DNA from: Breznakia sp. PF5-3
GTDB taxonomy: Bacteria; Bacillota_I; Bacilli_A; Erysipelotrichales; Erysipelotrichaceae
Assembly: GCF_029504745.1 (NCBI RefSeq)
Contig: NZ_JAQFIQ010000036.1
Span: 1-23,231, forward strand
Length of the DNA: 23,231 bases
Direction: 5' to 3'
Shown here: one piece after another, positions 5,020 through 22,963 of the stretch
Layout of the letters: each line of letters opens with the position of its first letter
How positions within the stretch are numbered: position 1 is the stretch's first letter
The notes under the pieces: generated by a model
What the model saw: only the letters and a program-made list of their open reading frames with translations
What the model was told of the DNA's origin: nothing
Database searches by the model: none
Made by a program: the position numbers and the translations under genes

Positions 5020-5032
5020 TTAGAATAAAAAA

Positions 5033-6738: not shown

Positions 6739-7051
6739 CAAAAACTAAGAAAAATAATGAAGTTTTTTGAAGGTTTCTTGTAATATGGGCTTTTTTATGC
6801 GATATTAATATTAAGAAATGTATATAAAAGCAGCATAATAAAAAAATATAATTAGTTAAATTGCATAATTGGCTTGGGAAGGCACACTATAATTATGCGG
6901 AGGGCAACTTTATCTTTTATATTTTTTTGTTATCTGCTGTTTCACTATTCTTGTTTTTTTAGGGTAGTGAGCGAGCTTTTTGATTTTAGTATCCCGTATG
7001 ACTAAGCCCTCTTATGAAACCATAATTTATAATTTATCAGGAGGGCGAAAT

Positions 7052-8365
7052 ATGAGTGGATTAAAAGCGGAAGAAATTCAAAAATTTATTGATGGTGATG
7101 ATACGGTATATCCTAAGATTTTTGCTGTGTATAAAAACAAAGTTAATTATATGGCCATCAAAATTCTTCGTAATGAAGCAGATTGTGAAGAAGTAGTGCA
7201 AAATACGTTTATTAAAGTATTCGAAAAAAGAAAAGATTTAAAAGATGCGAGTGCATTTAATACATGGATCTATCGAATTGCATACAATGCTAGTTTAGAT
7301 TTATACAGAAAGAATAAACGTAATTTAAGTAGTGATAATCATGATGTAGAAGAATTATCAGATTCTACAAGAGATACAAATTATGAAGTTAAAAAACATA
7401 CGATTTTGGAGTCTGTTCGTTTACAAATCGAAAGTTTACCAAAAGAGCTAAAAGAAATCTGTGATCTATGGTTTCTTTCTGGATGTAGCTTGGAAGAAAT
7501 TTCAGGTATTTTAAATGTGCCAAAAGGTACGGTTAAAAGCCGTTTACATCGTGCACGAAAACAACTACGTTCTGATTTGCAGAGGCAAGAGATAACCCCC
7601 AGGACGTTTTTAACGTTGTCGTTTCCAACCTTTGCATACCGGATATATGTTTCTATGATTGAAACACATAAGATTACAGCAGCATCAGGTGCTAGAATCA
7701 TGCGAAAGATTGAGGAAGCTACCAACGTCTCTGTAGATGCACTGGCATCTGCAATTGGAAATAATTCACTTGGAAGAGCAAGTATTGGAACTTTTGTATT
7801 ACTTTCATCTTTGCTACTTGGAGGTTTGGGAGCAGCAGGCGTGATGAATCCTACAGATACATCGGCAAAAAATATTACAGAAGTGATGTATCTAGATGAG
7901 ATAACGAATAAGAATTTACAAATTGGGATAATCTTTGATGGGACGATTAAGGCAAAGGATGTCAAAGTAACTCTTAATGGCAAGAAGATAAAGCTTGATG
8001 TTGTTGACAAAGATCGGTGTACTTTTATAGCTAGTGAAAATGGGCAGTATGTAATTAAATATAAGAATTCCAATGAAGAAATTGAAATAAAGAATATTGA
8101 TAAATCAGCACCTGTTTTATTAGGGATATCGGCAGATGATGGATTAATTAGTTTAAGTGCAGAAGATAATCATTCAGGGATTGACTTTGAAAAATCTTAT
8201 GTAGAAGCAGGCGATAAAAAAATATCATTAGTAAAGATTGATGAGAAGAATTTCTATTTAAGTGATGCATTAGAAAAAGATGCGACAGTGAGGTTTTATG
8301 ATATTGCAGGGAATTATGAAACTTACAAAATAAATGTTGAAAAAAAGATTAGTAGTACAGAATAG
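7052..8365 (+). CDS. ECF (group 4) sigma-70 factor fused to a TM helix and an extracytoplasmic Ig-like domain (single-chain sigma/anti-sigma-like sensor)
   Basis: GGAGGG at 7040-7045 sits 6 nt before the ATG at 7052; the track start at 6980 is a TTG with no SD. Region 2: EEVVQNTFIKVFEK...FNTWIYRIAYNASLDLYRKNKR. Region 4.2: LPKELKEICDLWFLSGCSLEEISGILNVPKGTVKSRLHRARKQLR. TM helix IGTFVLLSSLLLGGLGAAGVM (7784-7846). The C-terminal ~170 aa is beta-rich and ends with a RFYDIAGNYETYKINV motif typical of bacterial Ig-like domains. Confidence 0.85.
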   Translation: MSGLKAEEIQKFIDGDDTVYPKIFAVYKNKVNYMAIKILRNEADCEEVVQNTFIKVFEKRKDLKDASAFNTWIYRIAYNASLDLYRKNKRNLSSDNHDVEELSDSTRDTNYEVKKHTILESVRLQIESLPKELKEICDLWFLSGCSLEEISGILNVPKGTVKSRLHRARKQLRSDLQRQEITPRTFLTLSFPTFAYRIYVSMIETHKITAASGARIMRKIEEATNVSVDALASAIGNNSLGRASIGTFVLLSSLLLGGLGAAGVMNPTDTSAKNITEVMYLDEITNKNLQIGIIFDGTIKAKDVKVTLNGKKIKLDVVDKDRCTFIASENGQYVIKYKNSNEEIEIKNIDKSAPVLLGISADDGLISLSAEDNHSGIDFEKSYVEAGDKKISLVKIDEKNFYLSDALEKDATVRFYDIAGNYETYKINVEKKISSTE

Positions 8366-8566: not shown

Positions 8567-8595
8567 TTGAGAACTTTTCATAAAATGCGGTCGTC
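8567..8595 (+). promoter_or_regulatory. ECF-sigma-type promoter of the cohesin-dockerin operon (second copy of TTGAGAACTTTTC-N-CGTC)
   Basis: GAAC at 8571-8574, a 17-nt gap, CGTC at 8592-8595. The 13-mer at 8567-8579 is identical to 418-430. It lies downstream of the sigma-gene terminator and 26 nt upstream of the ATG at 8621. Confidence 0.6.
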
Positions 8596-8620
8596 CCTAA
8601 AATAGAGAGGAGAATTGGAT

Positions 8621-11600
8621 ATGAAAAAAGTTATATCTAGCTTACGTAAATTTGGTTTAGGTTCTTTAGCTTTTTGCATGGCACTTGGAATGGCATTAAC
8701 GAATATTAATGCAATTGATAGTAGTTCTGAGATAAGTGTAAAAAATGAAATTACTTATAACGATGATAAAGCGCAAGCGACAATTCATTTAGATGTGGCA
8801 CAAGAAAACGAAAATGTTGAAGTGAGTAAAGTGTTAGATCCAAATGAAAATGAAATGAGTCTTGATGACTTAAACTATGTAGTCGATAACAACGCTACTT
8901 ATACATTTAAAGTAGAGTATCGTATGGAGGATAGTCAAGACCTTCAGACATATGACTATGAAGTTATTGTAAATGACATTATAGACGCAACAAGCAAGGG
9001 CGAGATATCAAGAGGGGCGCTAAGAAGTGATATTAGCACAAGAGCTAATATTCTTGGAGACAATGAGTATATTGTGTATACTCTTGATGAATTAAAAACA
9101 TATGCTGAAATACCAAATGCAACAGTTTATTTTGGAGCGGATATTATTTGGGCATCTGGTACATCTTCAGATAAGAGTATTTCTATTGCAGAAGGTGTAA
9201 CGATTAATGGAACTGATCCTAGAACAGGTATTCGTCATAAATATAGATACGATACAGGTAGTTCAAAATGGGAAGGTTTCCAACTTCGTCAAGATGATAG
9301 AAAAGTAACATTCAGTGATATTGATATTGAGGGAACTGGAGGATATGGTGTAGCAAATGGACATGATTATCGAAGAGTAGTAGTAACATTCCATAATGTG
9401 AATTTCAAAGGTTCAAATGCTCAAGGATTCTATGCTCCAAAAGGTGGAAAACTGATTATGTCAGGAGATACTACTTGGACACAAAAAGGAACAAATCCAT
9501 ATTCAGAAGAGTTTGCAGAAATTACAAACTTAGAATTTGCAGAAGGTGCAAATGTGACAATTGATCATGAATCAAGATTAGGAAAGAGTTACAATTCATT
9601 CTTCTATGCTTCTTACAATGATGATAAATATAAACATATTGACATTACAGTAGGAAAGAACGCAAAGGCAACAATCAAATCAAACAAAGGAATTTTTGCT
9701 GCAAATGCAAATGGTGGAACACACTCAATTACAGTAAATGAAGGTGCAAATTTTACGATTGATCAAACAAACAATACAGACAATGAATGTCAGTTAGCAA
9801 AACCTGGTAACAATTCACCAATTTACATTAGAGTAAAAGATGAAGGTACATTCAATTTCTATTCCAACACAAAAGCAGGGTATGGAATGTTGAATACACA
9901 ACAAGAAAGTGCAATCAATGTTGATGCAGGTGGATCAATCCGTGTTATTAACTATGGTAAAGGTGGAGCTGTCGGTGCAAACAGTACAGCAACATATATC
10001 AACCTTGATACACCTAAATATGCAGAATTTACAAGTCAATCAACATTTCCATTAGAAATGATGACAAGGGGTGGCGGAAATGTAACAGCAAGCAATGCTG
10101 TTGTATTAGCTAGTGCAGATAACAAAGCATACTATAACCTAGGTTATGTACATAACATTGCAATGAACCATAAAAGTAGTAGTAACACTTTAGTTGGTGT
10201 TAATCCTACAACTTGGACTGGTGCATATACATATACAGCAATGCAAAATGGACTTAAGAGTTTAGTGTTTAGAGGGGTTTCGATTGAAATTCAAGAACCT
10301 GTAAAAGATACTGATTCAATTGTGAATGTGAAAACAGAACCAAATGCGAAAGTAACAATTACAGGGACATATGAAGATGGAACACCTTGTGAATTAACAA
10401 AAGTAGCAGATGAAAACGGGGATGTTCAATTTGATTTAGGAGATAAAACACTAAAAGGTGGATCTGAATTATCTTCTAAAGCAACTGTAAATAACGATAT
10501 TGAACTTATTGGAAATACAGTAATTGTAGAAAAAACTCCAATTGAAGAAAAAGTAACGCTTACTGCAGAAGATGCATTCCTTCACCGTGATGATGCGAAA
10601 GCATTAGCTAATGTTGATGGATTAGCATACTACAACAAAGCAAAAGCAGTATTATGGAATAACACAGAAGATACACCTAGTGCATCATGTGCAGACTACG
10701 ACAAGATTAAAGCAGGTGTAATCGGTGTTTACGATGTGACATATTCTTATACGTTACATGAAGAAACAATTACAACAACAGCTAAAATTATTGTTCACAA
10801 TGGAGTACCAACACCAGATGGTGAATATGTATTGACAGCTTCAGATGGATTGATTTCTGAGAGTGAAGCGAAAGCTTTATCTGGAAAAGAGTATAGTTCA
10901 CTTCGTTCATACAACAAAGCTACAGCTTTCAATAAGAAAGGTGAGCAATTTGAGGTAAGTACATTTGTACAACCAGGAGACTGGATGAGTATTACAGATG
11001 GAAAAGTTGGATCTTATAGAGTTTTCTACTCATTTGGTGAAGGCGATAACTTAGTTCAAAAAATAGTTAAGATAACAGTATATGAAGATGGTGGTATCTT
11101 ATCACCAGATGAAGATTTTGTTCTTCATGCATTTGATGCTTGTATCTTAAAAAGTGAAGCAGAAGGATTAAATGTAAAAGAAGATTTAATTCCATATAAC
11201 CGAGGAAAAGTAACATTGGCAAGTGGAGATATTTTAGCGCCTAATGTGAAAGCAGATGATTTCGCAACGATTAAAAGTGGAACACTTGGAAACTATGATG
11301 TGACTTATAGTTATGGAAGTGAAAATAATGCAGTTAGCAAAGACGTAATCGTTAGTGTTAAGAAGAATGGTGGAATTGTTTCACCAGAAAGAGATTTTGT
11401 TCTTTATGCGGAAGATGGAGAAATCTTACAAACCGAAGCAGAAGGTATGGAATCAGAAACAGACGTATTAGATATAGTGAATGGATATGTTGAATTTGTA
11501 GATGGAACTACAGTAGCACCAGATATTTCAGTGGAAGACTTCGATAAAGTACAAGCTGGAAAAGATGGTGATTATAAAGTTACTGTTAGCTACGATGGTG

Positions 11601-11881
11601 TTGAAAAAGAAGTAGAATTGACACTAATTCAAGAATATGAAGCAAGGTATTTATTTGATTATAATAATGATGGAAAAGTAAATAGTGTAGATTATGTATA
11701 TTTCAATGATTTATTTAATAATCCAGATACTGTAACAGAACAAGATTTATTACTTTCTGATGCAAATGGAGATGGATATATAGATATGGTTGATTTAGGT
11801 ATGGTTCACTATTATTTAAACAATCCACAAGCAAAATTAAAAGAAATTAGAATACCAATTGATTTACTTAAAAAGAAATAA
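8621..11881 (+). CDS. Secreted dockerin-bearing adhesin-like protein: N-terminal Ig-like region, beta-helix-like central region, 4 Ig-like repeats, C-terminal type-I dockerin
   Basis: GAGAGGAG at 8604-8611 favours the ATG at 8621; the track start at 8615 is a TTG only 3 nt after the SD. Signal peptide ...GMALTNINA. Recurrent beta-helix-like rungs: EGANVTIDHES, GKNAKATIKSNKG, NEGANFTIDQTNN, DEGTFNFYSN, DAGGSIRVINYG. Repeats and dockerin are listed as separate features. Confidence 0.85.
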   Translation: MKKVISSLRKFGLGSLAFCMALGMALTNINAIDSSSEISVKNEITYNDDKAQATIHLDVAQENENVEVSKVLDPNENEMSLDDLNYVVDNNATYTFKVEYRMEDSQDLQTYDYEVIVNDIIDATSKGEISRGALRSDISTRANILGDNEYIVYTLDELKTYAEIPNATVYFGADIIWASGTSSDKSISIAEGVTINGTDPRTGIRHKYRYDTGSSKWEGFQLRQDDRKVTFSDIDIEGTGGYGVANGHDYRRVVVTFHNVNFKGSNAQGFYAPKGGKLIMSGDTTWTQKGTNPYSEEFAEITNLEFAEGANVTIDHESRLGKSYNSFFYASYNDDKYKHIDITVGKNAKATIKSNKGIFAANANGGTHSITVNEGANFTIDQTNNTDNECQLAKPGNNSPIYIRVKDEGTFNFYSNTKAGYGMLNTQQESAINVDAGGSIRVINYGKGGAVGANSTATYINLDTPKYAEFTSQSTFPLEMMTRGGGNVTASNAVVLASADNKAYYNLGYVHNIAMNHKSSSNTLVGVNPTTWTGAYTYTAMQNGLKSLVFRGVSIEIQEPVKDTDSIVNVKTEPNAKVTITGTYEDGTPCELTKVADENGDVQFDLGDKTLKGGSELSSKATVNNDIELIGNTVIVEKTPIEEKVTLTAEDAFLHRDDAKALANVDGLAYYNKAKAVLWNNTEDTPSASCADYDKIKAGVIGVYDVTYSYTLHEETITTTAKIIVHNGVPTPDGEYVLTASDGLISESEAKALSGKEYSSLRSYNKATAFNKKGEQFEVSTFVQPGDWMSITDGKVGSYRVFYSFGEGDNLVQKIVKITVYEDGGILSPDEDFVLHAFDACILKSEAEGLNVKEDLIPYNRGKVTLASGDILAPNVKADDFATIKSGTLGNYDVTYSYGSENNAVSKDVIVSVKKNGGIVSPERDFVLYAEDGEILQTEAEGMESETDVLDIVNGYVEFVDGTTVAPDISVEDFDKVQAGKDGDYKVTVSYDGVEKEVELTLIQEYEARYLFDYNNDGKVNSVDYVYFNDLFNNPDTVTEQDLLLSDANGDGYIDMVDLGMVHYYLNNPQAKLKEIRIPIDLLKKK
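10553..11644 (+). repeat. Four tandem ~91-aa Ig-like protein repeats (coding, diverged at DNA level)
   Basis: Each unit runs [LV]xAxDxxIxxxxAKAL...YN.A.V...G......V...D[FW]..I..G..G.Y.VTYSYG.....K.V.[IV].V. The signatures are GVIGVYDVTYSY, GKVGSYRVFYSF, GTLGNYDVTYSY and GKDGDYKVTVSY. Confidence 0.8.
11651..11824 (+). other. Type-I dockerin module (two Ca-binding loop/helix segments)
   Basis: LFDYNNDGKVNSVDYVYFNDLF ... LLSDANGDGYIDMVDLGMVHYYLNN. Both halves fit the DxNxDGxhxxxD dockerin/EF-hand-like loop followed by a helix. Confidence 0.8.
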
Positions 11882-11924
11882 TGAAGAAAGGAGATTGTTT
11901 ATTTTATAAATAAACAAACACGAT

Positions 11925-13451
11925 ATGAAATTAAAATTTATTAAAAAAGGATTTAAGAAAATCGCTGCTCTAGGGTTAGTGATGGCTGTGTTGATTCCTA
12001 TTGTTGGGAATGTTACTTCTTCAATAACAGCAGCTCAAACACCTTCATTTGACGTAGAGCCTACGATTACAATTACAAGAAATGATGGTGGTGGACTATA
12101 TTATGGAACACACGAACAAGAAGAAAGTTATGTAGATAATGGAAAACAATATTACCGTGATGGAGATATTATTCAAGTAGAAGTATCTTTACCGCAAGGA
12201 CATGGGTCATCAGCAGTATTTAATGTTGTGAAATATGATAATGAAAAATTACAATTATTATCAACAATGGATCATATTAAATATTCAATGGCTTCAAATT
12301 ATATGAATGCAGGATGGGATCCAGCAGTTGGATACTATGAAGGAGAGACAAACCAAATCTCAACAATATCAACAGGACCTGCAAATGAATTTGAAGGTGG
12401 AAATATTGCTGTAATGTATTTTAAAGTTAAACCTGGAGTTGAAAGTACAAAAGGAACAGATATTACATTCGAATTTCCAAACTTTAATAGTGCAACAAGA
12501 ATTGAAGGGGAAAGAATGCCTGTTAATAACCATAAAGGTTTTATAGCAGGAGATGAATCAACATATGAATATCACCCTGAATCAATTACAATTCAAGCGA
12601 AAACACCTTCTGCTCCTGAACCAGCAGTAAAACCTACATTGGAATTAACTGCTAATACAGTAACAGTTTATGAAGGAGATATTGTAAACCCTAAAGATTA
12701 CATAAAAAAAGCAAGCTGTACAAGTGATGCAAATGTTAATAAAGATAGTGTTGTAATTACTGGTGGAACTGATGAAACAGGAAAACATCAACCTGTAGCA
12801 GGAAACTATGAATTTACATATAAAGTAACAAATGCATCAAATGAAACAACAGAAAAAACATTGAAATTAAATGTTTTAGAAAGAACATACACTGTAAAAT
12901 CAGTAGAAACAGCTGGTCAAGGATTGAATATTCCTGCTGGAACAACAGATGCTGAATTCGAAGAAATTCTTGAAGGTCTTTTAGGTAAAGAATTTGTTGT
13001 TAATGTAGAAGGAAATGATGGATCTAAGTTTAAAGTTAAAGGAACTGTTTTCGGTGGAGAAACTGATGAATACGAAATTGATGGAAATGATGTTTTAACA
13101 ACACAAACATTTAATATGAAATTAGATTTATTATTGCCAGCAGTAGTATATAACGAAAATGGTGAAAGAGAAATCGTTTCATTACTTGGAAGAGCTGGTT
13201 TTGCTAGTTTAATCGATGATGGAACAGCAGAAGCAGTAATTAAAATTAGAGTTGGTGCAGGTTCAACAACACCAGGAAATGATTCTACAGGATCAAATAA
13301 TGGATCTACAGGTCATGCATCAATTGCTGCAGGTAATTCTGGAGCAGGAACAGATACAGGAGATACTACAAACACAGCAGGATTTATGACATTATTGGCA
13401 TTATCTGGACTTGTATTGGTAGGAACTAAATTAAGAAAAACATATCGCTAA
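11925..13451 (+). CDS. Cell-surface anchoring cohesin protein: signal peptide, cohesin-like module, Ig-like domain(s), Ser/Thr/Gly-rich linker, C-terminal sorting-signal-like tail
   Basis: Signal peptide ...NVTSSITAAQ. Cohesin-like module at 12039-12599. Ig-like domain ending AGNYEFTYKVTNASNETTEKTLKLNV. C-terminus GTDTGDTTNTAGFMTLLALSGLVLVGTKLRKTYR, i.e. xxDTGD, a hydrophobic stretch and a basic tail. No good SD before the ATG at 11925. Confidence 0.8.
   Translation: MKLKFIKKGFKKIAALGLVMAVLIPIVGNVTSSITAAQTPSFDVEPTITITRNDGGGLYYGTHEQEESYVDNGKQYYRDGDIIQVEVSLPQGHGSSAVFNVVKYDNEKLQLLSTMDHIKYSMASNYMNAGWDPAVGYYEGETNQISTISTGPANEFEGGNIAVMYFKVKPGVESTKGTDITFEFPNFNSATRIEGERMPVNNHKGFIAGDESTYEYHPESITIQAKTPSAPEPAVKPTLELTANTVTVYEGDIVNPKDYIKKASCTSDANVNKDSVVITGGTDETGKHQPVAGNYEFTYKVTNASNETTEKTLKLNVLERTYTVKSVETAGQGLNIPAGTTDAEFEEILEGLLGKEFVVNVEGNDGSKFKVKGTVFGGETDEYEIDGNDVLTTQTFNMKLDLLLPAVVYNENGEREIVSLLGRAGFASLIDDGTAEAVIKIRVGAGSTTPGNDSTGSNNGSTGHASIAAGNSGAGTDTGDTTNTAGFMTLLALSGLVLVGTKLRKTYR
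12039..12599 (+). other. Cohesin-like module A
   Basis: GDIIQVEVSLPQGHGSSAVFNVVKYDNEKLQLLS and GGNIAVMYFKVKPGVESTKGTDITFEFP match the cohesin pattern (GDxVxVxVxL ... F.h.YDp..Lehhs ... G.hA.h.FKV...G...I.F). Paralogous to modules B and C. Confidence 0.65.
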
Positions 13452-13486
13452 TTTATAGCAGAAAGAAAAGCATTTGAAAGTGGTGA

Positions 13487-13513
13487 GAAAAGGAAGTCTG
13501 GACACTCCTTTTC
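13487..13513 (+). other. Intercistronic stem-loop (GAAAAGGA / TCCTTTTC), possibly a partial terminator or mRNA-processing/stability element
   Basis: A perfect 8-bp stem (13487-13494 with 13506-13513) and an 11-nt loop, followed by CATTGCTTTTCG, which is only a weak U-tract. Located between the stop at 13451 and the ATG at 13539. Confidence 0.35.
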
Positions 13514-13538
13514 CATTGCTTTTCGAGAAAGGACATTT

Positions 13539-16500
13539 ATGAAAAAGATTATCATGAAAAGTCTTGTTCTTCTGCTAGCAATTACAACTATATTACCAAT
13601 GAGTGGTATTACGGTTGCAGCAGCGGAAGGAATAAAGACAGATATTACCATTACACGTAATAACGGAAATGGTGCTTATGGGGAACATACGCATCCATCA
13701 TACGTTGAAGATGGTGTTCAATATTATCGTGAAGGCGATATTATTGAATTGGATATTGCATTGCCTGCAAATCATGGGGCATCAGAACTTTGGAACGTAG
13801 TAAAGTATGATCCAACACAAGTAGCAGTTGTATCAACAAAGCTAAATGTTCAAAGTACGCTTGGTGATAATTATCGGGCAAAGGGTTATGAAGCTAATAC
13901 AAATTTAGCTTATCAAGGAACACAGGGATTAATATCAACTACGATTGTGCGTACATTCTATGGAAATGATGCACCTGATTTTGATACAGCTGGAGGAACA
14001 ACAGCTAAAATTTATTTTAGAGTTCTTAATGATGTGGAAACAGTAGAAGGAACAGAAATTACATTTGAATTTCCAATTTTCCAAGCAATCAGTAGAACTA
14101 GTATTACCGATTATGAATTTATACACGAAGGATTTGATGCGAATCGTTATGCGGAAACAAGAACTGTAAGTTTAGAATCACAAACGATTATTGCGAAAAA
14201 ACCAACGGTTGATTTTATTGCAGAGGATGGATTCATTACACGTAGTCAAGCACAAGCAATTGGTGAAAGTGCAGATTTAAAACCTTATAACTTTGTTAGT
14301 GCTACAGCAAGTGATGGACAAGAAGTGGCAGTAAAAGCAACAACAAGTAGTTTAGATACAATTAAGGCAGGAACATTGGGAACATATGATGTTACTTATT
14401 CATATACATTTGAAGGAACACCAATGTCAAAAACAGTAAAACTTACAGTTGTTGAAAACGACGTAGTTATTTCTGAAGATAGAACGGTAGCTTTAAGAGC
14501 GGATAGTGTTATCTTGACACAAACACAAGCAAAAGCCTTATCTGCAAAAGAAGCATTGCTTCCATTAAATAATGTATTTGTATACTTATCAAATGGAACA
14601 ACAGCAACAGCAAATGTTGATGTACCAGAGTTTGATAAGATCAAAGCAGGTACAATTGGTACATATAATGCAACATATTCTTATGGAATAGATAAAAGTT
14701 TTGCATCAAAAACAGTAAATGTAGTTGTTGTAAAAGATGGATCTGACATAAGCGATAATAAAAAAGTTTCCTTATATGCAAAAGATGGTTTTATTAGAGA
14801 GTCACAAGCAAGAGCATTGTCACTACGTTCAGCCGTAGCACCATATAACAGTGCTGTAGTAACATTAGCGGATGGATCAACTACAACTCCAACAACAGAA
14901 ATTGAAGCAAATGCTTGGAATAAGATGAGAGCTGGAACATTAGGAACATACAATGTATATTATCACCATGGAACAGGTGATAGTGAAGTTGAAATGAATG
15001 TGAAAGCTACGGTTATTTCAGATGATGCAGTTGTTTCAAAAGATGAAACAGTTAGTTTAGTAGCGGATGATGTTGATATGTATCAAGAAGATGCAAAAGC
15101 GCTTGGTAAAGTGGATGATTTAATTGATTACGCAAATGCTGAAGTAACACTATCAGATGGTACAAAAGTAGCACCTAGTGTAGAAACAGATGATTTTGAT
15201 AGTATCAAAGCTGGAATCATTGGTGAATATGAAGTTACATTTAAATATGGTGAAGGTGATAGTGCTGTTGAAAAGACAGTAACAATTACAATAAAAGAAG
15301 ATTTAAGACATTTAATCTCAGCTACAGATAACTTTATTACTCAAAGTAAAGCACAAGAATTAACTTCAAAAGAAAGTTTACGTGCAGTGAATTCAGTTAG
15401 TGTAACAGACTATAATGGTGTTGACCAAGATGCAGTTGTAACAACAAGTGACTTTAATACAATTAAAGCAGGAACTTTGGGAAGCTACATAATTACTTAT
15501 AGTTATGGTACAGGAACAAAAGAAGTTTCAGTTACTGCAAAAGTAAATGTTATTCCTGATGATTCTATTGTTGATGGTGATGTAAGTTTATATGCAAGAG
15601 ATAAAGCGATTACAGTAACACAAGCAAAAGCATTGAATACGAAAGAAGACCTAATTCCATATAATGAAGCATCTGTAAGATTGCTTGATGGAACTACACC
15701 AGCACCAAGTGTTGCAGTTTCTGTAGGCGATTGGTCATTGATAAACAGTGGTAAAGAAGGTTCTTATAATGTTACTTATAGTTATGGAACGGTTTCAAAG
15801 ACAGTAAAGATTACAGTTGTAAAAGATGGCTCTGAAGAGTCTGAAGACAAAACAGCAACATTATATGCGAAAAATGCTTTTATAACCGTATCAGATGCAA
15901 AAAAAGTTAGCAATAAGACGCAATTGATTCCATACAACAAAGCAGAAGTAGTATTGGCGAGTGGTGATAAAAAAGTGCCAGATGTGACGATATCAAATGA
16001 TGATTTATTAGCAATTAGTGCAGGAACAATTGGTGGCTATAACGTACTTTATTCATACGGTAGTGGAAAACAACAAGTACAAAAAATGGTAAAAATAGTT
16101 GTAATTGCAGATGATCCGATAATTTCAGAAGATGAAAGTGTTGCGTTGAGTGCAAATGATGAAGAAATTGATGATGCAGCTGCTAAGAAATTAACAAGTA
16201 GAAACGAATTGATTGATATTAGTAATGCAGTGGTTACTTTCGATGATGGAACAACACAAGCACCTACATTAGCGGTTGCTGATGAAGATTGGGATGCAAT
16301 ACGTTCAGGGAAATTAGGTACATATTCATTAACATATTCTTATGGTACATTAGGAAATAAAGATTATGTTACAAAAACAGTAAGTTTGACAGTAGTGAAA
16401 CTTACAGAAGACCGTACTTTATTTGATTACAACAGAGATAATATAATTAATAGTGTGGATTACATGTATTTCCATGAGTTATTCAATAATCCTCAATTTG

Positions 16501-16634
16501 TGACACCAACAGATGTATTGTTGTCTGATGCAAATGGTGATGGATATATTGATATGGTTGACTTAGGAATGATTCATTATTATGTGAACAATCCAAAAGT
16601 AAAACCTCCAACTATTAAAGTACCAATAGGTTAA
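13539..16634 (+). CDS. Scaffoldin/adaptor-like protein: N-terminal cohesin-like module, 8 Ig-like repeats, C-terminal type-I dockerin
   Basis: SD GAGAAAGGA lies before the ATG. Signal peptide ...GITVAAAEG. Module, repeat and dockerin evidence is listed under separate features. Confidence 0.85.
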   Translation: MKKIIMKSLVLLLAITTILPMSGITVAAAEGIKTDITITRNNGNGAYGEHTHPSYVEDGVQYYREGDIIELDIALPANHGASELWNVVKYDPTQVAVVSTKLNVQSTLGDNYRAKGYEANTNLAYQGTQGLISTTIVRTFYGNDAPDFDTAGGTTAKIYFRVLNDVETVEGTEITFEFPIFQAISRTSITDYEFIHEGFDANRYAETRTVSLESQTIIAKKPTVDFIAEDGFITRSQAQAIGESADLKPYNFVSATASDGQEVAVKATTSSLDTIKAGTLGTYDVTYSYTFEGTPMSKTVKLTVVENDVVISEDRTVALRADSVILTQTQAKALSAKEALLPLNNVFVYLSNGTTATANVDVPEFDKIKAGTIGTYNATYSYGIDKSFASKTVNVVVVKDGSDISDNKKVSLYAKDGFIRESQARALSLRSAVAPYNSAVVTLADGSTTTPTTEIEANAWNKMRAGTLGTYNVYYHHGTGDSEVEMNVKATVISDDAVVSKDETVSLVADDVDMYQEDAKALGKVDDLIDYANAEVTLSDGTKVAPSVETDDFDSIKAGIIGEYEVTFKYGEGDSAVEKTVTITIKEDLRHLISATDNFITQSKAQELTSKESLRAVNSVSVTDYNGVDQDAVVTTSDFNTIKAGTLGSYIITYSYGTGTKEVSVTAKVNVIPDDSIVDGDVSLYARDKAITVTQAKALNTKEDLIPYNEASVRLLDGTTPAPSVAVSVGDWSLINSGKEGSYNVTYSYGTVSKTVKITVVKDGSEESEDKTATLYAKNAFITVSDAKKVSNKTQLIPYNKAEVVLASGDKKVPDVTISNDDLLAISAGTIGGYNVLYSYGSGKQQVQKMVKIVVIADDPIISEDESVALSANDEEIDDAAAKKLTSRNELIDISNAVVTFDDGTTQAPTLAVADEDWDAIRSGKLGTYSLTYSYGTLGNKDYVTKTVSLTVVKLTEDRTLFDYNRDNIINSVDYMYFHELFNNPQFVTPTDVLLSDANGDGYIDMVDLGMIHYYVNNPKVKPPTIKVPIG
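13626..14207 (+). other. Cohesin-like module B
   Basis: GDIIELDIALPANHGASELWNVVKYDPTQVAVVS and GGTTAKIYFRVLNDVETVEGTEITFEFP. Collinear with modules A and C, including the shared YV[DE][DN]G.QYYR[DE]GDII. Confidence 0.65.
14208..16400 (+). repeat. Eight tandem ~91-aa Ig-like protein repeats, same family as 10553-11644
   Basis: Signatures GTLGTYDVTYSY, GTIGTYNATYSY, GTLGTYNVYYHH, GIIGEYEVTFKY, GTLGSYIITYSY, GKEGSYNVTYSY, GTIGGYNVLYSY and GKLGTYSLTYSY. Each is preceded by [VL]xLxAxDxxI..xxAKAL and followed by K.V.[IV].V[VI].D. Confidence 0.85.
16419..16592 (+). other. Type-I dockerin module
   Basis: LFDYNRDNIINSVDYMYFHELF ... LLSDANGDGYIDMVDLGMIHYYVNN. The second segment matches the dockerin at 11651-11824 at 24 of 26 residues (my own count). 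Confidence 0.8.
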
Positions 16635-16661
16635 AACATTTTTAAAGAAAGGGCGATTCAT

Positions 16662-17882
16662 ATGAAAAAAAGATTTATAAAACTAGCAATAATAATTTTT
16701 ACTATATCAATAACTATACCACCCAAAATAAATATCTCTGCAGAAGTAAATAAGAACTTAGTTGGAGATCAAAATTGGGTTAACAATGAAACGCCTATTT
16801 CTAAGCTGGGAGCCTTAGTCGAGAAATCGACTAGGGTTCTTAGTGCAAATGTTATGAATCACAATGTAGCGAATTCAAGAGCATTAACACCGTCATTTGA
16901 TGTAGCACCGATTGTTGAAATATCAAGAAATGATGGTGGCGGTGTATATGGTAGTCCAAAATATGATAGCTATGTAGAAAATGGGACACAGTATTATCGA
17001 GATGGTGATATTATACGTGTAAAAATATCTTTACCTGCTGGTCATGGATCGACAGGTTACTCTAATGTGATAAAATACGATTCATCCAAATTACAGTTGG
17101 TGTCGGATTTTAATGCGATTAGAAGTTCTATAGGGAAAAACTATACAGGATGGGATGCATATGCAGCATATTATAGTGGGGATAAAAACTGTATTCGTCA
17201 TTATGCTGTTTCACAATCACAAGAATATCAAGGTGGACAAGTGGCAACCCTTTATTTTAGAGTTCGAACAGGTACGGAAACAGAAGGTGGAACAAATATG
17301 GTATTTGAATTCCCAATGTTTCAATCAACAACAAAATTGGCTGGGGATGAATATCCAATAAAAAACCATCGTGGTTATAATGCAGGTGATCCATCAACTG
17401 AATATATGACAGTGGGAAGTGTTTCTATTCAGTCCAAGAAACCGTCAAATAACGGAATTGGGACGAACCCTTCTCAACCAGAAAAGCCAGGACCTGGAAA
17501 ACCATCTATCACTCCAGGGATAAATACAGATAAAGAAAAAGTTATCAATGAAAATTTTACTCCTGAACAACTTGAAAAAATAGCTGAAATTAGTAGCAAG
17601 TATCTGTATTCACTTGATCGTCTTTCAAATGGAATTTATGGTCTTGATGAATATGATTCAATATTAAAAGATTTACGTTCAAAAGGTAATACATCTTCTG
17701 GGGTACGTTATAAAAAATCATCTTTTGATAACAAAGGAATCATGGGTAGTAAGAATAGCATATCAAGCGGTTCTTCAAATTACTATATGCTTTTCTTATT
17801 GTTGAGTATTTTGGTTGTAATTATGACGTTATCTTATGATTATTATGAAGATCGTAAATTAAAAGAAAAGTTGGAGGACTAA
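16662..17882 (+). CDS. Membrane-anchored cohesin protein: signal peptide, cohesin-like module, Pro-rich linker, unknown ~90-aa region, C-terminal TM helix
   Basis: SD GAAAGGG lies before the ATG. Signal peptide ...PPKINISAEV. Cohesin-like module at 16887-17438. Linker NPSQPEKPGPGKPSITPG. C-terminal YYMLFLLLSILVVIMTLSY followed by the charged EDRKLKEKLED. No LPXTG-like motif. Confidence 0.8.
   Translation: MKKRFIKLAIIIFTISITIPPKINISAEVNKNLVGDQNWVNNETPISKLGALVEKSTRVLSANVMNHNVANSRALTPSFDVAPIVEISRNDGGGVYGSPKYDSYVENGTQYYRDGDIIRVKISLPAGHGSTGYSNVIKYDSSKLQLVSDFNAIRSSIGKNYTGWDAYAAYYSGDKNCIRHYAVSQSQEYQGGQVATLYFRVRTGTETEGGTNMVFEFPMFQSTTKLAGDEYPIKNHRGYNAGDPSTEYMTVGSVSIQSKKPSNNGIGTNPSQPEKPGPGKPSITPGINTDKEKVINENFTPEQLEKIAEISSKYLYSLDRLSNGIYGLDEYDSILKDLRSKGNTSSGVRYKKSSFDNKGIMGSKNSISSGSSNYYMLFLLLSILVVIMTLSYDYYEDRKLKEKLED
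16887..17438 (+). other. Cohesin-like module C
   Basis: TPSFDVAPIVEISRNDGGGVYG (compare TPSFDVEPTITITRNDGGGLYYG in module A), GDIIRVKISLPAGHGSTGYSNVIKYDSSKLQLVS, and GGQVATLYFRVRTGTETEGGTNMVFEFP. Confidence 0.65.
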
Positions 17883-17883
17883 T

Positions 17884-18063
17884 ATGGCTACATTATATTT
17901 AATAATATCAATTATCATATTTATATGTACTTGTTTCTTTTGTTTTATATACTTACGAAGAAGAAATGCAATGCGTCGTGAAGCATTAGCGATTTATGAA
18001 GAAGTGCAAAGACATCAATGTATAAAATCATCTAGTTCAAAACCATTGGAAGAACGTGTATGA
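17884..18063 (+). CDS. Small (59 aa) single-pass membrane protein, absent from the supplied ORF track
   Basis: GGAGG at 17873-17877 sits 6 nt before the ATG at 17884, which follows the upstream stop (17880-17882) by 1 nt. My translation is MATLYLIISIIIFICTCFFCFIYLRRRNAMRREALAIYEEVQRHQCIKSSSSKPLEERV. The TGA at 18061-18063 overlaps the next ATG at 18060 (ATGA). Confidence 0.6.
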   Translation: MATLYLIISIIIFICTCFFCFIYLRRRNAMRREALAIYEEVQRHQCIKSSSSKPLEERV

Positions 18064-18512
18064 AAAAAATAAGTATAGTTATAGCAATGATGCTTTGCAT
18101 TCTTATCGGATGTGAAAGTAATGAAGAAAAAAAGACCGTATGTGAAAATTTGCAAATTGAAGATTCTGCAATTAGAGAACAACATCAGATTTATTATATA
18201 CAGGATGAAGTTAGTAAAATTGAAATGACCAATACATTTGATCTAACAAAAACTAGTATTCAAGAAAATTCTTTAGATTCATATAAAGAAAGTATGGAAG
18301 CGCGATATAAAGGTGCAAAAGGAATTACCTATTCTTTTGAATCTAACGATAATGATTTCAAAGAAATCCTTGTTTTTGAGATTAGTGATGATAATTTAAA
18401 AGGTACTTTGATGCAAAATTTATTACTTACATATTATGGAGTTGAGGATAATAATCTTGATGCAAAGACGATTATCAAGCATTTAAAAGACAAAGGAATG
18501 AAGTGTAAATAG
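18060..18512 (+). CDS. Lipoprotein of unknown function (possibly YehR/DUF1307-like)
   Basis: Lipobox MKKISIVIAMMLCILIGC/ESNEE. About 130 aa of mature hydrophilic protein. Last gene of the cohesin-dockerin operon, translationally coupled to the small ORF. The family assignment rests only on size and loose pattern. Confidence 0.7.
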   Translation: MKKISIVIAMMLCILIGCESNEEKKTVCENLQIEDSAIREQHQIYYIQDEVSKIEMTNTFDLTKTSIQENSLDSYKESMEARYKGAKGITYSFESNDNDFKEILVFEISDDNLKGTLMQNLLLTYYGVEDNNLDAKTIIKHLKDKGMKCK

Positions 18513-18520
18513 TGATGTAT

Positions 18521-18550
18521 AAAGAGTATTGATATCAATACTCTTTTTTT
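18521..18550 (+). terminator. Rho-independent terminator ending the cohesin-dockerin operon
   Basis: Palindrome AAAGAGTATTGATATCAATACTCTTT followed by a T-run (CTCTTTTTTTGC). Confidence 0.8.
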
Positions 18551-19003: not shown

Positions 19004-21355
19004 ATGGAGCTAAAACAGAGTAGTCGAATTGCTATTTTAAAAGAGAAAATGCTTTCGCAAAAACGGTATGTAAGTATTGAGCAAGCAAAAATCATTACGG
19101 ATGTTTATAAGCGAAATGAGAATAAACCAATGATATTAAAGAGAGCATTGGCTTTAAAAGAAGCGCTTGAATATATTGAGATAGGAATTGAACCAGAAGA
19201 ACAAATTGTTGGTAATCGTACAAAGGGAGTTCGCTCAGGAGTAGTGTTTCCTGAAGGTGGCTGTTCTTGGGTAGATAGGGAATTGGAAACCTTGCCTAAA
19301 AGACCACAAGATAAATTTCATGTTCATCCAGAGGATATTCAAACCTTTAGAGAAGTAATATTACCATATTGGCAAGGAAAATCATTAGAAGATGTAATTG
19401 CATATCGTGGTGGTGAACAGATAACTGCGATTTCAAAGGTCGCGAAAATTAATCAAACGGATCATGCACAAGGGCATATTTGTCCCAATTGTGAGACGTG
19501 GTTAGAAAAAGGGCCGGCAATTTTAAAGGCAGAGGCATTAGCTAAAATAGATAGTGCACCAGCTGAGCAAAAGGATTTTTATGAAAGTATTGTGATTGTA
19601 ATGGATGGTGCAATCATGTTTATGCAAAGATATCGTGATTTATTAAAAGAAACAGCAAGTAGGGCTGAGAATAAAGGATATAGAGAAGATTTACTTAACC
19701 TGTCAGGTATTTGTGATCGACTGAGTAAATACCCTGCACAGAGCTTCCATGAAGCTGTACAATCAGTTTGGTTTTTGTTTGTAATTTTACAGATGGAATC
19801 AAATGCTTCTTCTTTCTCTCCGGGACGAATGGATAAATTTTTATATCCATATTATCGTAATGATATTGATCATCACATAATAGATGATCAGCAAGCTTTA
19901 GAACTCATAGAATCGATTTGGCTAAAGTTTAATCAAATTGTGTATTTACGAAACAAAAGTGGGGCGAAATATTTTGCTGGTTTTCCGATTGGCTTCAATA
20001 TTGCTATTGGTGGATTGGATGAAAAAGGAGAAGCTTATGAAAATGAATTATCTTATTTGTTTTTAAAAGCACAAGAACACTTAGGGTTGCCTCAACCCAA
20101 CCTTTCGCTGAGATTGAATCATAAGACAAGTGATAAACTATTAAAAGCATCTATTCATGTTGTTGCCAAGGGAAGTGGAATGCCACAGTTTTTCAATGAT
20201 GAATGTATTGTTCCTGGAATGATTGATTTAGGAATTGAGAAAAAAGATGCTATGGACTATGCGATTGTAGGATGTGTAGAACTAACAACCCAAGGAAACA
20301 ATTTAGGTTGGAGTGATTCTGCTATGTTTAATTTTAATAAAGCATTGGAATTAACTCTAAATCATGGAACCTGTTTGATTACCAATCAAAAGTTGGCACC
20401 AGATTTTGGTGGTTTAGAAATCTATGACACTTACGAAGCATTAGAAATAGCATTTGAAAAGACCATTGATTTTTATATGGAACAGATGATTGCATGTTGT
20501 GAAATTGTTGAAAAAGCTCATATTGATATTCTTCCTTCACCGTTTCTTTCTTCAGTGATTGACAATTGTATGGAAAAGGGAGTTGATGTAACAGCAGGAG
20601 GAGCAAAATATAATTTAAATGGAATTCAAATGATTCAAGTAGCAAATCTAGCTGATTCACTTGCAGCATTAAAAAAACTTGTCTATGAAGAAAAACGAAT
20701 TCAAAGAAAAGCTTTATTAAATGCATTACAAACAAATTTCGAAAATAATGAAATCATGCGTCAAATATTACTAAACAAGGTAGATAAGTATGGAAATGAT
20801 GTAGAATGGGTAGATACATTAGGTATCACATGGGCAAAGAAGTTTAGGAATAAATTACGTTCATTCAAAAATTATCGTGGTGGTGTTTATCATACAGGTA
20901 TGTATACAGTAAGCGCCCATGTTCCTATGGGAGAAAATGTAGGAGCTAGTCCAGATGGGAGGTTCTCACAAACACCTTTAGCAGATGGGGGGATGTCAGC
21001 TGTATATGGAAGGGATACAAAAGGTCCTACTGCGGTGTTTAAATCTGTGTCTAGGATAGATAACGATCTAACAACCAATGGTGGGTTGTTGAATATGAAG
21101 TTTTTACCAACGTTCTTCAAACATGATACAGGCATTGATAAATTTTCATCATTTTTACGTTCATTTGTTGATTTGAAAATTCCTCATGTGCAGTTTAATG
21201 TTGTTTGTAAAGAAGATTTATTGGCTGCCCAAGAGCATCCAGAACAATATCGTTCATTGACGATTCGAGTTGCTGGATATACAGCATACTTCACGGAATT
21301 GGCAGGGGAATTGCAAAATGAAATCATTGCAAGAACAAGTTATGAAGATATCTAA
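19004..21355 (+). CDS. Glycyl radical enzyme of the PFL2/1,2-eliminase class, YbiW/PflD-like (candidate anhydrohexitol-6-phosphate C-O lyase)
   Basis: 783 aa. C-terminal glycyl-radical fingerprint TIRVAGYTAYF (RVAGY at 21266-21280, Gly codon 21275-21277). Single-Cys loop AIVGCVELT (Cys codon 20273-20275) with the adjacent Glu typical of dehydratase/eliminase GREs, not the CC of pyruvate formate-lyase. Followed by an activase and an FSA-type aldolase. Confidence 0.85.
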   Translation: MELKQSSRIAILKEKMLSQKRYVSIEQAKIITDVYKRNENKPMILKRALALKEALEYIEIGIEPEEQIVGNRTKGVRSGVVFPEGGCSWVDRELETLPKRPQDKFHVHPEDIQTFREVILPYWQGKSLEDVIAYRGGEQITAISKVAKINQTDHAQGHICPNCETWLEKGPAILKAEALAKIDSAPAEQKDFYESIVIVMDGAIMFMQRYRDLLKETASRAENKGYREDLLNLSGICDRLSKYPAQSFHEAVQSVWFLFVILQMESNASSFSPGRMDKFLYPYYRNDIDHHIIDDQQALELIESIWLKFNQIVYLRNKSGAKYFAGFPIGFNIAIGGLDEKGEAYENELSYLFLKAQEHLGLPQPNLSLRLNHKTSDKLLKASIHVVAKGSGMPQFFNDECIVPGMIDLGIEKKDAMDYAIVGCVELTTQGNNLGWSDSAMFNFNKALELTLNHGTCLITNQKLAPDFGGLEIYDTYEALEIAFEKTIDFYMEQMIACCEIVEKAHIDILPSPFLSSVIDNCMEKGVDVTAGGAKYNLNGIQMIQVANLADSLAALKKLVYEEKRIQRKALLNALQTNFENNEIMRQILLNKVDKYGNDVEWVDTLGITWAKKFRNKLRSFKNYRGGVYHTGMYTVSAHVPMGENVGASPDGRFSQTPLADGGMSAVYGRDTKGPTAVFKSVSRIDNDLTTNGGLLNMKFLPTFFKHDTGIDKFSSFLRSFVDLKIPHVQFNVVCKEDLLAAQEHPEQYRSLTIRVAGYTAYFTELAGELQNEIIARTSYEDI

Positions 21356-22265
21356 TAAGTGTGGAACGGTGTTTGATATTAAACGTTTTGCTACGCATGA
21401 TGGTGAGGGAATTCGAACAACTATTTTCTTAAAAGGGTGTCCATTAAACTGTGTTTGGTGTCAAAATCCAGAAGGTATTCAAAAGCAACGTCAAGTTTTA
21501 TATTTGAAGCGTAAATGTATTAAATGTGGACTTTGTGTAAAAGCTTCTACACATGGAGGCATAAAGATGACAAGTGATGGTATTCTTTATGAACGTAATA
21601 TAGAGGAAGATTGGGATCATATTTTATATCTTTGTCCAACTAATGCGCTTCACTTTGATAGTAGAGAATATACGCTTACAGAAATCATGAATGAAATAGC
21701 AAAGGATCAAGTATTTTATAAGCATAATGGAGGCGTTACCCTTTCGGGTGGAGAACCTTTGTATCAATTTGATTTTGCTTATGCAATTGCTAAAGAATGC
21801 AAAGCAAAGGGAATACATGTCGCTATTGAAACAACCTTAGCTATCGACAAAGAAAAATTACAACAGATAGTACCTTATTTGGATCAGATATATGTAGATT
21901 TAAAAATTATGGATGATAAACAACATCGCACATATGTAGGAGCTGGTAATAAGCAGATACTTGCAAACATTTCATATTTATTAACATCAGAATATAAAGA
22001 TAAGGTTATCATTAGAACACCACTTATTCCCAAATTGAGTGCTACAAAAACAAATATTAAGCAAATTTCAAAATTTATAAGTAATTTGGATTCAGAAGTA
22101 AGGTATGAATTATTGAATTATAATCCATTGGCAAAAGCTAAATATGAATACCTTAATCAACCATATTGTTTTGATCAAAATCCAGACCCCTTTACCCAAA
22201 GTGAGATGGAATCGTATTATGAACTAGCAAGAAGTAATGGAATAAAACATATAATTGTAGAATAA
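21318..22265 (+). CDS. Glycyl-radical enzyme activating enzyme (radical SAM, with ferredoxin-like insert)
   Basis: GTVFDIKRFATHDGEGIRTTIFLKGCPLNCVWCQNPE with CxxxCxxC at 21438-21461. Auxiliary Cys motifs CIKCGLCVKA ... CPTNAL. SAM-binding GGVTLSGGEP. The start is uncertain: AGGGGA precedes the ATG at 21318, the ATG at 21342 is also possible, and the track start at 21270 is an 86-nt overlap with no SD. Confidence 0.85.
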   Translation: MKSLQEQVMKISNKCGTVFDIKRFATHDGEGIRTTIFLKGCPLNCVWCQNPEGIQKQRQVLYLKRKCIKCGLCVKASTHGGIKMTSDGILYERNIEEDWDHILYLCPTNALHFDSREYTLTEIMNEIAKDQVFYKHNGGVTLSGGEPLYQFDFAYAIAKECKAKGIHVAIETTLAIDKEKLQQIVPYLDQIYVDLKIMDDKQHRTYVGAGNKQILANISYLLTSEYKDKVIIRTPLIPKLSATKTNIKQISKFISNLDSEVRYELLNYNPLAKAKYEYLNQPYCFDQNPDPFTQSEMESYYELARSNGIKHIIVE

Positions 22266-22276
22266 AAGGAGATATT

Positions 22277-22963
22277 ATGAAATTATTAATTGATAATGCA
22301 AATATAGAGGACATTAAAAGAATATATGAATATTATCCAATGGATGGTGTAACATGCAATCCAACTATTTTATTGAAGGAAGGAAAGAATCCGTATAAGA
22401 TATTAAAAGAAATCCGTGAATTTATTGGAAGTGATGCCCAATTACATGTGCAAGTAATATCATTAGTAGCAGAAGAAATGGTGAAAGAAGCGCATCAAAT
22501 TCAAAAAATATTAGGAAAGCATACATTTATTAAAATCCCAGTGATTCCAGAAGGTCTAAAAGCGATAAAGCAATTGGCTAGTGAAGGGGTAAATGTCACA
22601 GGAACGGCGGTTTATTCACCCATGCAGGGGTATTTAGCGGGCAAAGCAGGAGCGAAGTATGTAGCGCCATATGTAAATCGAATTGATAATCTTGGTTACA
22701 ATGGTATTGCTGTTGCGAAACAAATTCATGATATGCTAAAAGATACCAATATAGATTGTGAAGTAATAGCAGCTAGTTTTAAAAATGCTCAACAGGTAAT
22801 TGAATTATGCGAGTATGGAGTAGGGGCTTCAACTATATCTGCAGATGTGGTCGAAGGGCTTATAAAAAATGACACAATCAATGCAGCAGTGGATGTCTTT
22901 GTTAAAGATTTTGAAACATTGTGTGGAACCCATGCAACCATGCTTACTTGTCTTGATGATTAA
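22277..22963 (+). CDS. fsa: Fructose-6-phosphate aldolase / TalC-type transaldolase-family enzyme
   Basis: AAGGAGA SD before the ATG. N-terminus MKLLIDNANIEDIKRIYEYYPMDGVTCNPTIL matches the FSA/TalC signature. The Schiff-base Lys context is TFIKIPV (Lys codon 22532-22534, residue 86). The 228-aa size matches short FSA-type enzymes. Confidence 0.8.
   Translation: MKLLIDNANIEDIKRIYEYYPMDGVTCNPTILLKEGKNPYKILKEIREFIGSDAQLHVQVISLVAEEMVKEAHQIQKILGKHTFIKIPVIPEGLKAIKQLASEGVNVTGTAVYSPMQGYLAGKAGAKYVAPYVNRIDNLGYNGIAVAKQIHDMLKDTNIDCEVIAASFKNAQQVIELCEYGVGASTISADVVEGLIKNDTINAAVDVFVKDFETLCGTHATMLTCLDD

Follow-up and report, generated by a model that had tools for sequence, protein, structure and literature searches.

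A putative adaptor scaffoldin with a divergent cohesin, an Ig-like stalk and a dockerin in Breznakia sp. PF5-3

INTRODUCTION

Cohesin-dockerin systems are known mainly from the cellulosomes and amylosomes of Clostridia and Ruminococci. Here, we have analyzed a DNA stretch of 23,231 nucleotides from Breznakia sp. PF5-3 (contig NZ_JAQFIQ010000036.1, positions 1 to 23,231 of the forward strand; hereafter, the window) and, in particular, the gene of a secreted protein, B, that carries both a cohesin module (CohB) and a dockerin (DocB). B is encoded together with two further cohesin proteins, CohA and CohC', and with a dockerin-bearing protein, the payload, whose dockerin is referred to as DocPay.

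The presence of a cohesin and a dockerin in one protein is the standard layout of an adaptor scaffoldin. Like B, ScaC and ScaH of Ruminococcus flavefaciens are secreted polypeptides with one cohesin and one dockerin each, and their cohesins were among the structural matches of CohB (5lxv and 8ajy). In a ScaC-type adaptor, the dockerin plugs into the cohesin of another scaffoldin while the cohesin recruits a different set of dockerins. However, ScaC is short, has no immunoglobulin (Ig)-like stalk and recruits hemicellulases into a cellulosome, whereas B has eight Big_3 spacers, an adhesin-like, apparently non-enzymatic cargo and no cellulosome. Moreover, the ScaC cohesin cannot bind its own dockerin group, whereas the system of B has two nearly alike dockerins and a cohesin that Pfam does not recognize.

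Self-binding of such a protein is also already known. Amy4 (Sca1) of Ruminococcus bromii unites a cohesin and a dockerin, as B does, and experiments have shown that its cohesin accepts both the dockerin of Amy4 itself and the dockerins of other proteins, with potential multimerization; the authors of that work cite further cases of self-recognition. R. bromii dockerins were among the profile matches of the dockerins studied here (9qf9 and 9qf8). Unlike B, Amy4 is a GH13 enzyme without a long Ig stalk, and self-binding is demonstrated for Amy4 but only conjectured for B.

The solved sequences nearest to the CohB family profile were the type II cohesins of Acetivibrio cellulolyticus ScaA/ScaB (3l8q, 3fnk, 3ghp and 4u3s). 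CohB has the same fold, including the helices between strands 4 and 5, but the identity is just 12-17%, with TM-scores of about 0.5, and the Breznakia module is larger (~190 amino acids [aa]) and has an extra N-terminal hairpin (module aa 26-34). Unlike in the A. cellulolyticus type II system, the partner dockerin is type-I-like by Pfam and lacks a recognizable X-module dyad.

The toxin/glycosidase complexes of Clostridium perfringens resemble the Breznakia case in that cohesins pair with dockerins outside cellulose degradation and in a Gram-positive, host-associated bacterium. Entries from this species were weaker matches in the CohB structure search (2jh2 and 2o4e) and in the dockerin profile search (2jnk/2ozn). 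The C. perfringens complexes join enzymes pairwise, without an anchored cassette, an Ig-stalk adaptor or a link to an extracytoplasmic function (ECF) sigma factor. Sortase-assembled (FctA-type) pili offer a functional analogy only, as a long Ig-domain surface stalk that carries an adhesin; FctA-type pilins are joined covalently by sortase via sorting signals and pilin motifs, and B has neither.

In the reading that we favor, and which we hold to be probable by a modest degree, B would be a secreted monovalent adaptor (extender) scaffoldin. The small surface-display system to which it belongs would be non-cellulosomal, built on cohesin-dockerin pairs and restricted to Breznakia-type Erysipelotrichaceae.

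RESULTS AND DISCUSSION

Architecture of protein B

The features of B, all on the + strand, are listed below.

13539 to 16634, +, gene for the putative adaptor protein B, 1031 aa, with signal peptide, cohesin, 8 x Big_3 and dockerin
13539 to 13625, +, predicted signal peptide, aa 1-29, MKKIIMKSLVLLLAITTILPMSGITVAAA, judged from its basic N-terminus, hydrophobic core and AXA-like site
13626 to 14204, +, divergent cohesin module CohB, aa 30-222, by profile homology, AlphaFold2 (AF2) model and Foldseek; no Pfam match
14193 to 16412, +, eight tandem Big_3 Ig-like repeats, aa 219-958, by hidden Markov model (HMM), Pfam PF07523
16419 to 16604, +, dockerin DocB, aa 961-1022, two Ca-loop/helix segments
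16605 to 16634, +, conserved tail behind DocB, KVKPPTIKVPIG plus stop codon

The protein is identical to the database record MDF9825286.1 of Breznakia sp. PF5-3, which is titled "hypothetical" or "bacterial Ig-like domain-containing protein"; both of its cohesin-bearing neighbors are titled simply "hypothetical." A sequence-only reading of the window had proposed that this 1031-aa protein starts with a cohesin and ends with a dockerin, with eight Ig-like repeats in between. The open reading frame (ORF), the Pfam dockerin match and the cohesin profiles and model all agreed with the placement of the two terminal modules, and motif anchors and HMM gave a count of exactly eight repeats. No sorting signal or hydrophobic anchor was found at the C-terminus of B, which ends in ...NNPKVKPPTIKVPIG (...KVPIG). 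B also had no FctA match in Pfam and does not qualify as a sortase-assembled pilin.

Loci related to the window were retrieved with a 3-sequence cohesin alignment and are referred to by number (L002 onwards, the window being L001). The Big_3 match of B was well above threshold (PF07523; 51.7 bits, cutoff 21.2, E = 1e-13), and motif anchors and HMM together showed that its repeats, of about 92 aa each, have 29-50% mutual identity. The AF2 model of repeat 8 (predicted local distance difference test [pLDDT] >96) resembled the Ig-like domains of MmChi60 and InlK, with modest Foldseek E-values (3e-3 to 2e-2). Exactly eight repeats were present in six of the eight B orthologues, the cohesins of which are 35-45% identical to that of the window. 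Since the number eight is kept in these orthologues while the repeats themselves are only 29-50% identical, the stalk must be old, and selection appears to act on its length.

The N-terminal module is a divergent cohesin

No match to the Pfam cohesin family (PF00963) was obtained in B, and the paralogue CohC' stayed below threshold (15.2 bits, cutoff 24.1, E = 0.026). A single-sequence phmmer search of CohB against PDB returned spurious CheY matches only. An exhaustive HMMER search with the three cohesin modules of the window matched 25 proteins among 1.84 billion representatives, 19 of which are family members (clusters at 50% identity). The remaining six were weak matches (E 1e-7 to 5e-4) lying outside the CohB family; every one of them is a Pfam-verified cohesin protein and half (3/6) have themselves a cohesin-plus-dockerin architecture. 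When a 20-sequence profile of the family was compared with PDB, it matched the A. cellulolyticus type II cohesin 3l8q with E = 5e-7, and hhalign of the family against six classical cohesins gave a probability of 97.3% (E = 2e-11).

The structural data pointed in the same direction. The AF2 model of CohB (pLDDT 93.9) was a nine-stranded beta-sandwich (jelly-roll) with its strands in the canonical cohesin order, and the top 50 Foldseek matches in PDB were nearly all type I, II or III cohesins (E 3e-6 to 5e-4; TMt up to 0.67). The N-terminal module of B is thus a genuine but divergent cohesin, and the family to which it belongs is rare and goes unseen by Pfam and by NCBI annotation.

The dockerins of B and of the payload

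DocB was recognized by Pfam (PF00404; 32.8 bits vs. a cutoff of 22.9; E = 8e-8; aa 962-1017; 56 of 57 model positions), and both of its Ca-loops, DYNRDNIINSVD and DANGDGYIDMVD, were intact (DxNxDxxxD/NxxD loop followed by a helix). The profile of the dockerin family matched solved dockerins in PDB. The AF2 model of the last repeat plus DocB, which relied on an alignment built from the window and representative sequences, had a pLDDT of 96.8 and a pTM of 0.79 and showed three helices (residues 110-121, 128-134 and 144-155); Foldseek aligned the DocB model with the dockerins 4fl4_G, 4uyp_B and 2ccl_B (TMt 0.58-0.75, with 0.68-0.75 for 4fl4_G and 2ccl_B). The two segments of DocB have 10 of 23 residues in common and differ in their recognition residues (SV-HE vs. 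MV-HY), so that DocB lacks the internal symmetry of a dual binding mode. Such segment asymmetry has been tied to single-mode binding in the literature; a dockerin need not be symmetrical to belong to the family. We have also looked for an X-module-dockerin dyad formed by the last Big_3 repeat and the dockerin: no X-Doc structures occurred among the Foldseek matches, and a type II/III X-Doc reading of this end of B was dropped for that reason.

The second dockerin of the system lies at the end of the payload.

11651 to 11836, +, DocPay, payload dockerin, 75% identical to DocB over 58 core residues

This 75% identity compares with 39-56% in the five other genomes that have both dockerins. The likeness is most pronounced in segment 2, where the sequence-only reading had counted 24 identical residues out of 26; recomputation gave exactly the same count (21/23 over the 23-residue segment). 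Elsewhere the equivalent pairs agree in 11/23 (L002), 11/23 (L003) and 18/23 (L005) residues, and the segment-2 similarity of the window is therefore unusual for the family. In type I dockerins, specificity is usually set by positions 10, 11, 17, 18 and 22 of each segment, which we have taken as the canonical positions. At these positions, DocPay reads SV-ND-N / MV-HY-N and DocB reads SV-HE-N / MV-HY-N; 8 of the 10 agree, and the two that differ are conservative changes.

Seven of the 24 identical segment-2 residues are encoded by different codons, with a nucleotide identity of 67/78, and these figures ruled out recent gene conversion as the source of the identity. The codon differences argue instead that the identity has been kept by purifying selection. 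This implies at least one cohesin partner in common, and a cohesin that takes DocPay would probably take DocB too.

The orthologues revealed how this state may have arisen. In L003, L004 and L005, the dockerins of payload and adaptor carry distinct, orthologue-specific signatures, such as R in payloads and Y in B at position 18 of segment 2. The window payload dockerin has switched to the B-type segment-2 state and has retained its payload-type C-terminal tail, the tails behind the dockerins being PPxxxVP in all B orthologues (16605-16631) and LxExxIP in payloads (11837-11866 in the window). The tail of B formed a beta-strand in the AF2 model (E163-167), which may pair, like a clasp, with the strand immediately preceding the dockerin (E94-98).

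The payload and the two anchor proteins

The partners of B encoded in the window are the following.

8615 to 11881, +, payload, 1088 aa, secreted; orphan head (aa ~130-640), four Big_3 repeats, dockerin at the C-terminus
11925 to 13451, +, CohA anchor protein, 508 aa, with signal peptide, cohesin at aa 36-231 (nt 12030-12617) and ~270-aa stalk
16662 to 17882, +, CohC' membrane protein, 406 aa, with signal peptide, cohesin at aa 73-264 (nt 16878-17453), short stalk and transmembrane (TM) helix

The proteins at 11925 and 16662 had been proposed as cohesin anchors for B, and the expected features were present in both: their cohesins are homologous to CohB (38-39% identity) and they have signal peptides and C-terminal TM or sorting-like ends, an ending that B lacks. 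The C-terminus of CohA consists of a G/S/N/T-rich linker and a TGDTTN motif followed by a TM segment and a basic tail. All seven CohA proteins (~13330-13451 in the window; L002-L008) follow this plan: the G/S/N/T-rich linker leads to a conserved (A/V/K)TGD(T/A)TN-like motif, behind which come a hydrophobic stretch and a basic tail. Such an ending resembles a non-LPXTG sortase-type sorting signal, from which we infer that CohA is probably wall-linked. CohC proteins, on the other side, end in a TM helix and a conserved cytoplasmic tail, which is charged in CohC'. The cohesin of CohC' is 49% identical to that of CohA and 24-31% identical to the C-type cohesins of four other loci, whereas the parts behind it, namely stalk, TM helix and cytoplasmic tail, are of the C type and almost match those of L004_C/P0019. 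This suggests that CohC' is a chimera that arose by a cohesin module swap in the lineage of the window.

The payload orthologues have kept the Big_3-dockerin tail while their heads differ and their repeats number from 4 to 13; head swapping on a kept tail is as expected for exchangeable cargo. The head of the window payload (aa ~130-640) gave no match in Pfam, NCBIfam or PDB, and a word-indexed protein search was blank as well, yet that search also missed the query's own record. The first ~100 aa of the payload matched a Listeria LCP model weakly (E = 7e-6). The head (within 8615-10540) has a repetitive G/N/T-rich strand pattern suggestive of a beta-helix, and the payloads of L002, L003 and L005 carry an unrelated head that looks lectin-like by eye.

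Conservation of the cassette

The cassette, in the order sigma factor, CohA, B, CohC and DUF1307, was found in seven related loci, with the payload present in five of them and partial in L004. Its carriers are Breznakia pachnodae DSM 16784, a Breznakia metagenome-assembled genome, GCA_028749475.1 and three further metagenome contigs; a fragment, L009, repeats part of the arrangement of GCA_028749475.1. In the window, B unites cohesin and dockerin in one secreted polypeptide and is co-encoded with anchor cohesins and a dockerin cargo, as adaptor scaffoldins are. No glycoside hydrolase or carbohydrate-binding module (CBM) was found in any of the seven cassettes, and a cellulosome was ruled out on this ground.

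Adaptor scaffoldin or self-assembling fiber

The sequence-only reading had offered two possibilities for B: a head-to-tail fiber or, as a fallback, an adaptor scaffoldin of the classical kind whose eight Ig domains would lengthen its reach. The architecture, the common dockerin segment and the anchored cohesins proved to be real, and the adaptor reading was the best supported. In the adaptor model, DocB would plug Ca2+-dependently into an anchored cohesin, either that of CohA (probably wall-linked) or that of the membrane protein CohC', and CohB would capture the payload dockerin. The payload head would then be held roughly 30 nm further out than by direct docking on the anchor, a reach that we have estimated from typical Ig-domain dimensions. 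As 8 of the 10 specificity positions are equal, largely degenerate specificity is expected in the window genome; direct docking of the payload on the anchors would then be open as well, and B molecules may to some extent chain to one another, giving anchor-(B)n-payload, as a by-product rather than as a designed function.

Several observations weigh against this model. The three cohesins of the window are only 36-49% identical to one another and differ at 56-64% of the putative 8-3-6-5 face-strand positions (the binding-face residues having been assigned by strand order only), so that a common ligand is not required. The payload is adhesin-like to judge by its architecture alone, and its head has no detectable homologue. 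In the recovered part of the L006 contig there is no payload and B is the sole dockerin protein, and CohB might therefore serve dockerin proteins encoded elsewhere.

The alternatives to degenerate adaptor binding differ mainly in what they assume for the pair CohB-DocB. If the hierarchy were strict, CohB would recognize the payload dockerin only and DocB an anchor cohesin only, with no contact between B molecules, as in ScaC, which cannot bind its own dockerin group. Discrimination would then rely on the helix-1 positions 17/18 (ND vs. HE), on position 14 (V vs. M) or on the orthologue-specific tails. The conserved, orthologue-specific signatures of payload and B dockerins in L003, L004 and L005 (R vs. 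Y, LxExxIP vs. PPxxxVP) argue for such a scheme, as do the tails, which stay orthologue-specific in the window too, and the position of the window CohB as the longest and most divergent branch of the cohesin family tree. However, the segment-2 signature is lost in the window, where both dockerins read MV-HY-N and two conservative canonical changes are all that remains, and these canonical positions are the ones that usually set the specificity of type I dockerins. We thus regard a strict hierarchy as rather unlikely, though it is the foremost of the alternatives. Appreciable binding of DocB by CohB, which would permit anchor-(B)n-payload chains, seems to us a serious possibility, if one on which we would lean slightly to the negative side. 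The comparison of the cohesins is of interest here: CohA and CohB agree in 79% of their residues in L008 and in 55% in L004, and a dockerin that binds anchor A in those loci would almost certainly bind the cohesin of B. Also, two changes coincide in the window lineage, where the payload dockerin turned B-like and the CohC' cohesin turned A-like. It would fit these data that DocB recognizes A/B-type cohesins, which would allow B-B contacts.

From here, the step to a dedicated fiber is a larger one. In that case, the main function of B would be to form a CohB:DocB head-to-tail homopolymer, seeded on CohA or CohC' and capped by the payload. It would draw on the near-identical dockerins under purifying selection, on the concerted evolution of CohA and CohB in some lineages and on the parallel change of DocPay and CohC', which agrees with an ancestor in which DocB paired with A/B-type cohesins; B being the only dockerin protein of the recovered L006 locus, the Amy4 precedent and a promoter motif common to the covalent pilus, which points to co-regulation, are further points in its favor. 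Yet this support is indirect and goes back to single or few evolutionary events. Columns that covary between CohA and CohB were slightly enriched on the putative binding sheet (7/25 vs. 10/90 elsewhere; Fisher p = 0.04), a weak signal that faded without L008 (p = 0.16), and the binding-face strands of CohA and CohB are less alike than the opposite sheet in most genomes. Mirror-tree correlations of dockerin and cohesin distances were all positive (r = 0.36-0.84) but phylogeny-dominated, and singled out no pairing. A fixed, selected count of eight repeats is easier to understand for a spacer than for a polymer subunit, and the differences among the three cohesin faces, the long CohB branch, the behavior of the prototype adaptor ScaC and the distinct dockerin signatures of L003, L004 and L005, as expected of a hierarchical adaptor that does not bind itself, all speak against a homopolymer, which we consider improbable. 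Likewise, it is quite doubtful that B is the subunit of a new Ca2+-dependent, non-covalent cohesin-dockerin fiber that would be wall-seeded, adhesin-capped and ECF-co-regulated with the covalent sortase pilus. At the far end stands the idea that CohB serves dockerin proteins encoded elsewhere, or has lost dockerin binding, the cassette dockerins binding the two anchors only. The parallel homogenization of CohA with CohC' and of DocPay with DocB would fit two dockerins for two anchors, and the L006 locus lacks a linked payload; still, CohB is kept in all orthologues with a high-confidence cohesin fold, and we view this last explanation as highly improbable.

Novelty and significance

What is new in this locus is its setting in Erysipelotrichaceae of insect guts, in cassettes that showed no glycoside hydrolase or CBM, as well as the unannotated, divergent cohesin family and the length and conservation of the Ig stalk that the putative monovalent adaptor carries. 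The putative adhesin-like cargo and the apparent link to an ECF sigma factor are new as well. In the literature, we have found no paper linking Breznakia to cohesins, and in the papers that name Breznakia together with dockerin the system is not described. The cassette would thus extend cohesin-dockerin systems to insect-gut Erysipelotrichaceae and to a non-enzymatic, adhesin-display role. Because Pfam is blind to the CohB family, surveys that count PF00963, such as a cockroach-gut study, would miss it.

Natural swaps of specificity modules between lineages were seen. Together with the small size of the system (three cohesins and two dockerins) and its presence in a cultured type strain, B. 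pachnodae DSM 16784, these swaps make it a tractable model for the co-evolution of cohesin-dockerin specificity. The system may also yield new orthogonal or self-assembling protein connectors and, if B does chain to itself, it would represent a modular, reversible alternative to covalent pili.

Operon, regulation and genomic neighborhood

The features that frame the cassette in the window are listed below.

6980 to 8365, +, ECF sigma factor, 461 aa, regions 2 and 4 at aa ~50-200
8571 to 8595, +, ECF-type promoter motif GAACTTTTC-N12-CGTC, 20 nt upstream of the payload start (8615)
17884 to 18512, +, operon tail, with a 59-aa ORF followed by a DUF1307-like lipoprotein gene (18060-18512)
18521 to 18546, +, terminator-like hairpin that closes the operon

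The genes of the payload, CohA, B, CohC', the 59-aa ORF and the DUF1307-like lipoprotein probably form one operon, given the short gaps between them, the terminator behind the DUF1307 gene and the absence of an internal one (no comparable terminator was found within 8615-18512). In the window and in L008, CohC is followed by a small ORF (44-59 aa) and by a gene for a DUF1307-like lipoprotein; L006 likewise has the small ORF behind CohC, and L004 and L005 have a DUF1307 gene downstream as well. An extra protein of ~204-214 aa is encoded beside the DUF1307 gene in L006 and L008.

The ECF sigma factor is fused to a hydrophobic TM segment (aa ~270-290) and a putatively extracytoplasmic C-terminal domain of ~170 aa. 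It is kept over its full length at 42-43% identity in L002, L003 and L005 and heads the cassette in the other loci; by its layout it looks like a one-component sigma/sensor. The motif GAACTTTTC-N12-CGTC was found exactly twice in the window, against 0.02 occurrences expected by chance, with the second copy (422-446, +) upstream of a 921-aa gene of the pilus cluster (start 559). Ahead of the sigma genes of L002, L003 and L005 stands a near-identical motif, GGAACC-T-rich...CG(T/C)C. The common promoter motif thus suggests a single, autoregulated ECF regulon, which would comprise the cohesin-dockerin operon and the sortase pilus operon, the latter extending into the sigma gene.

The sortase pilus reported upstream of the cassette was confirmed by the presence of genes for FctA pilins, a sortase and an S26 peptidase. 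The S26 signal peptidase gene is directly upstream of the sigma gene in L005, L006 and L008. In the window (+), by contrast, the S26 gene (3318-3860) is separated from the sigma gene by the pilin-sortase-pilin genes (3868-6614). The pilus module of the window looks as if inserted into the cassette, and its pilins end in IPPMG, IPDMG and KPSTGD motifs.

Beyond the terminator, positions 19004-22963 (+) encode a glycyl-radical enzyme (pyruvate formate-lyase-like, 783 aa), a radical-SAM activase and a protein of the fructose-6-phosphate aldolase/transaldolase family. Genes for a PRD antiterminator, a phosphotransferase system EIIBCA and a GH1 enzyme are also found downstream in L001, and this sugar-catabolic cluster is apparently unrelated to the cassette.

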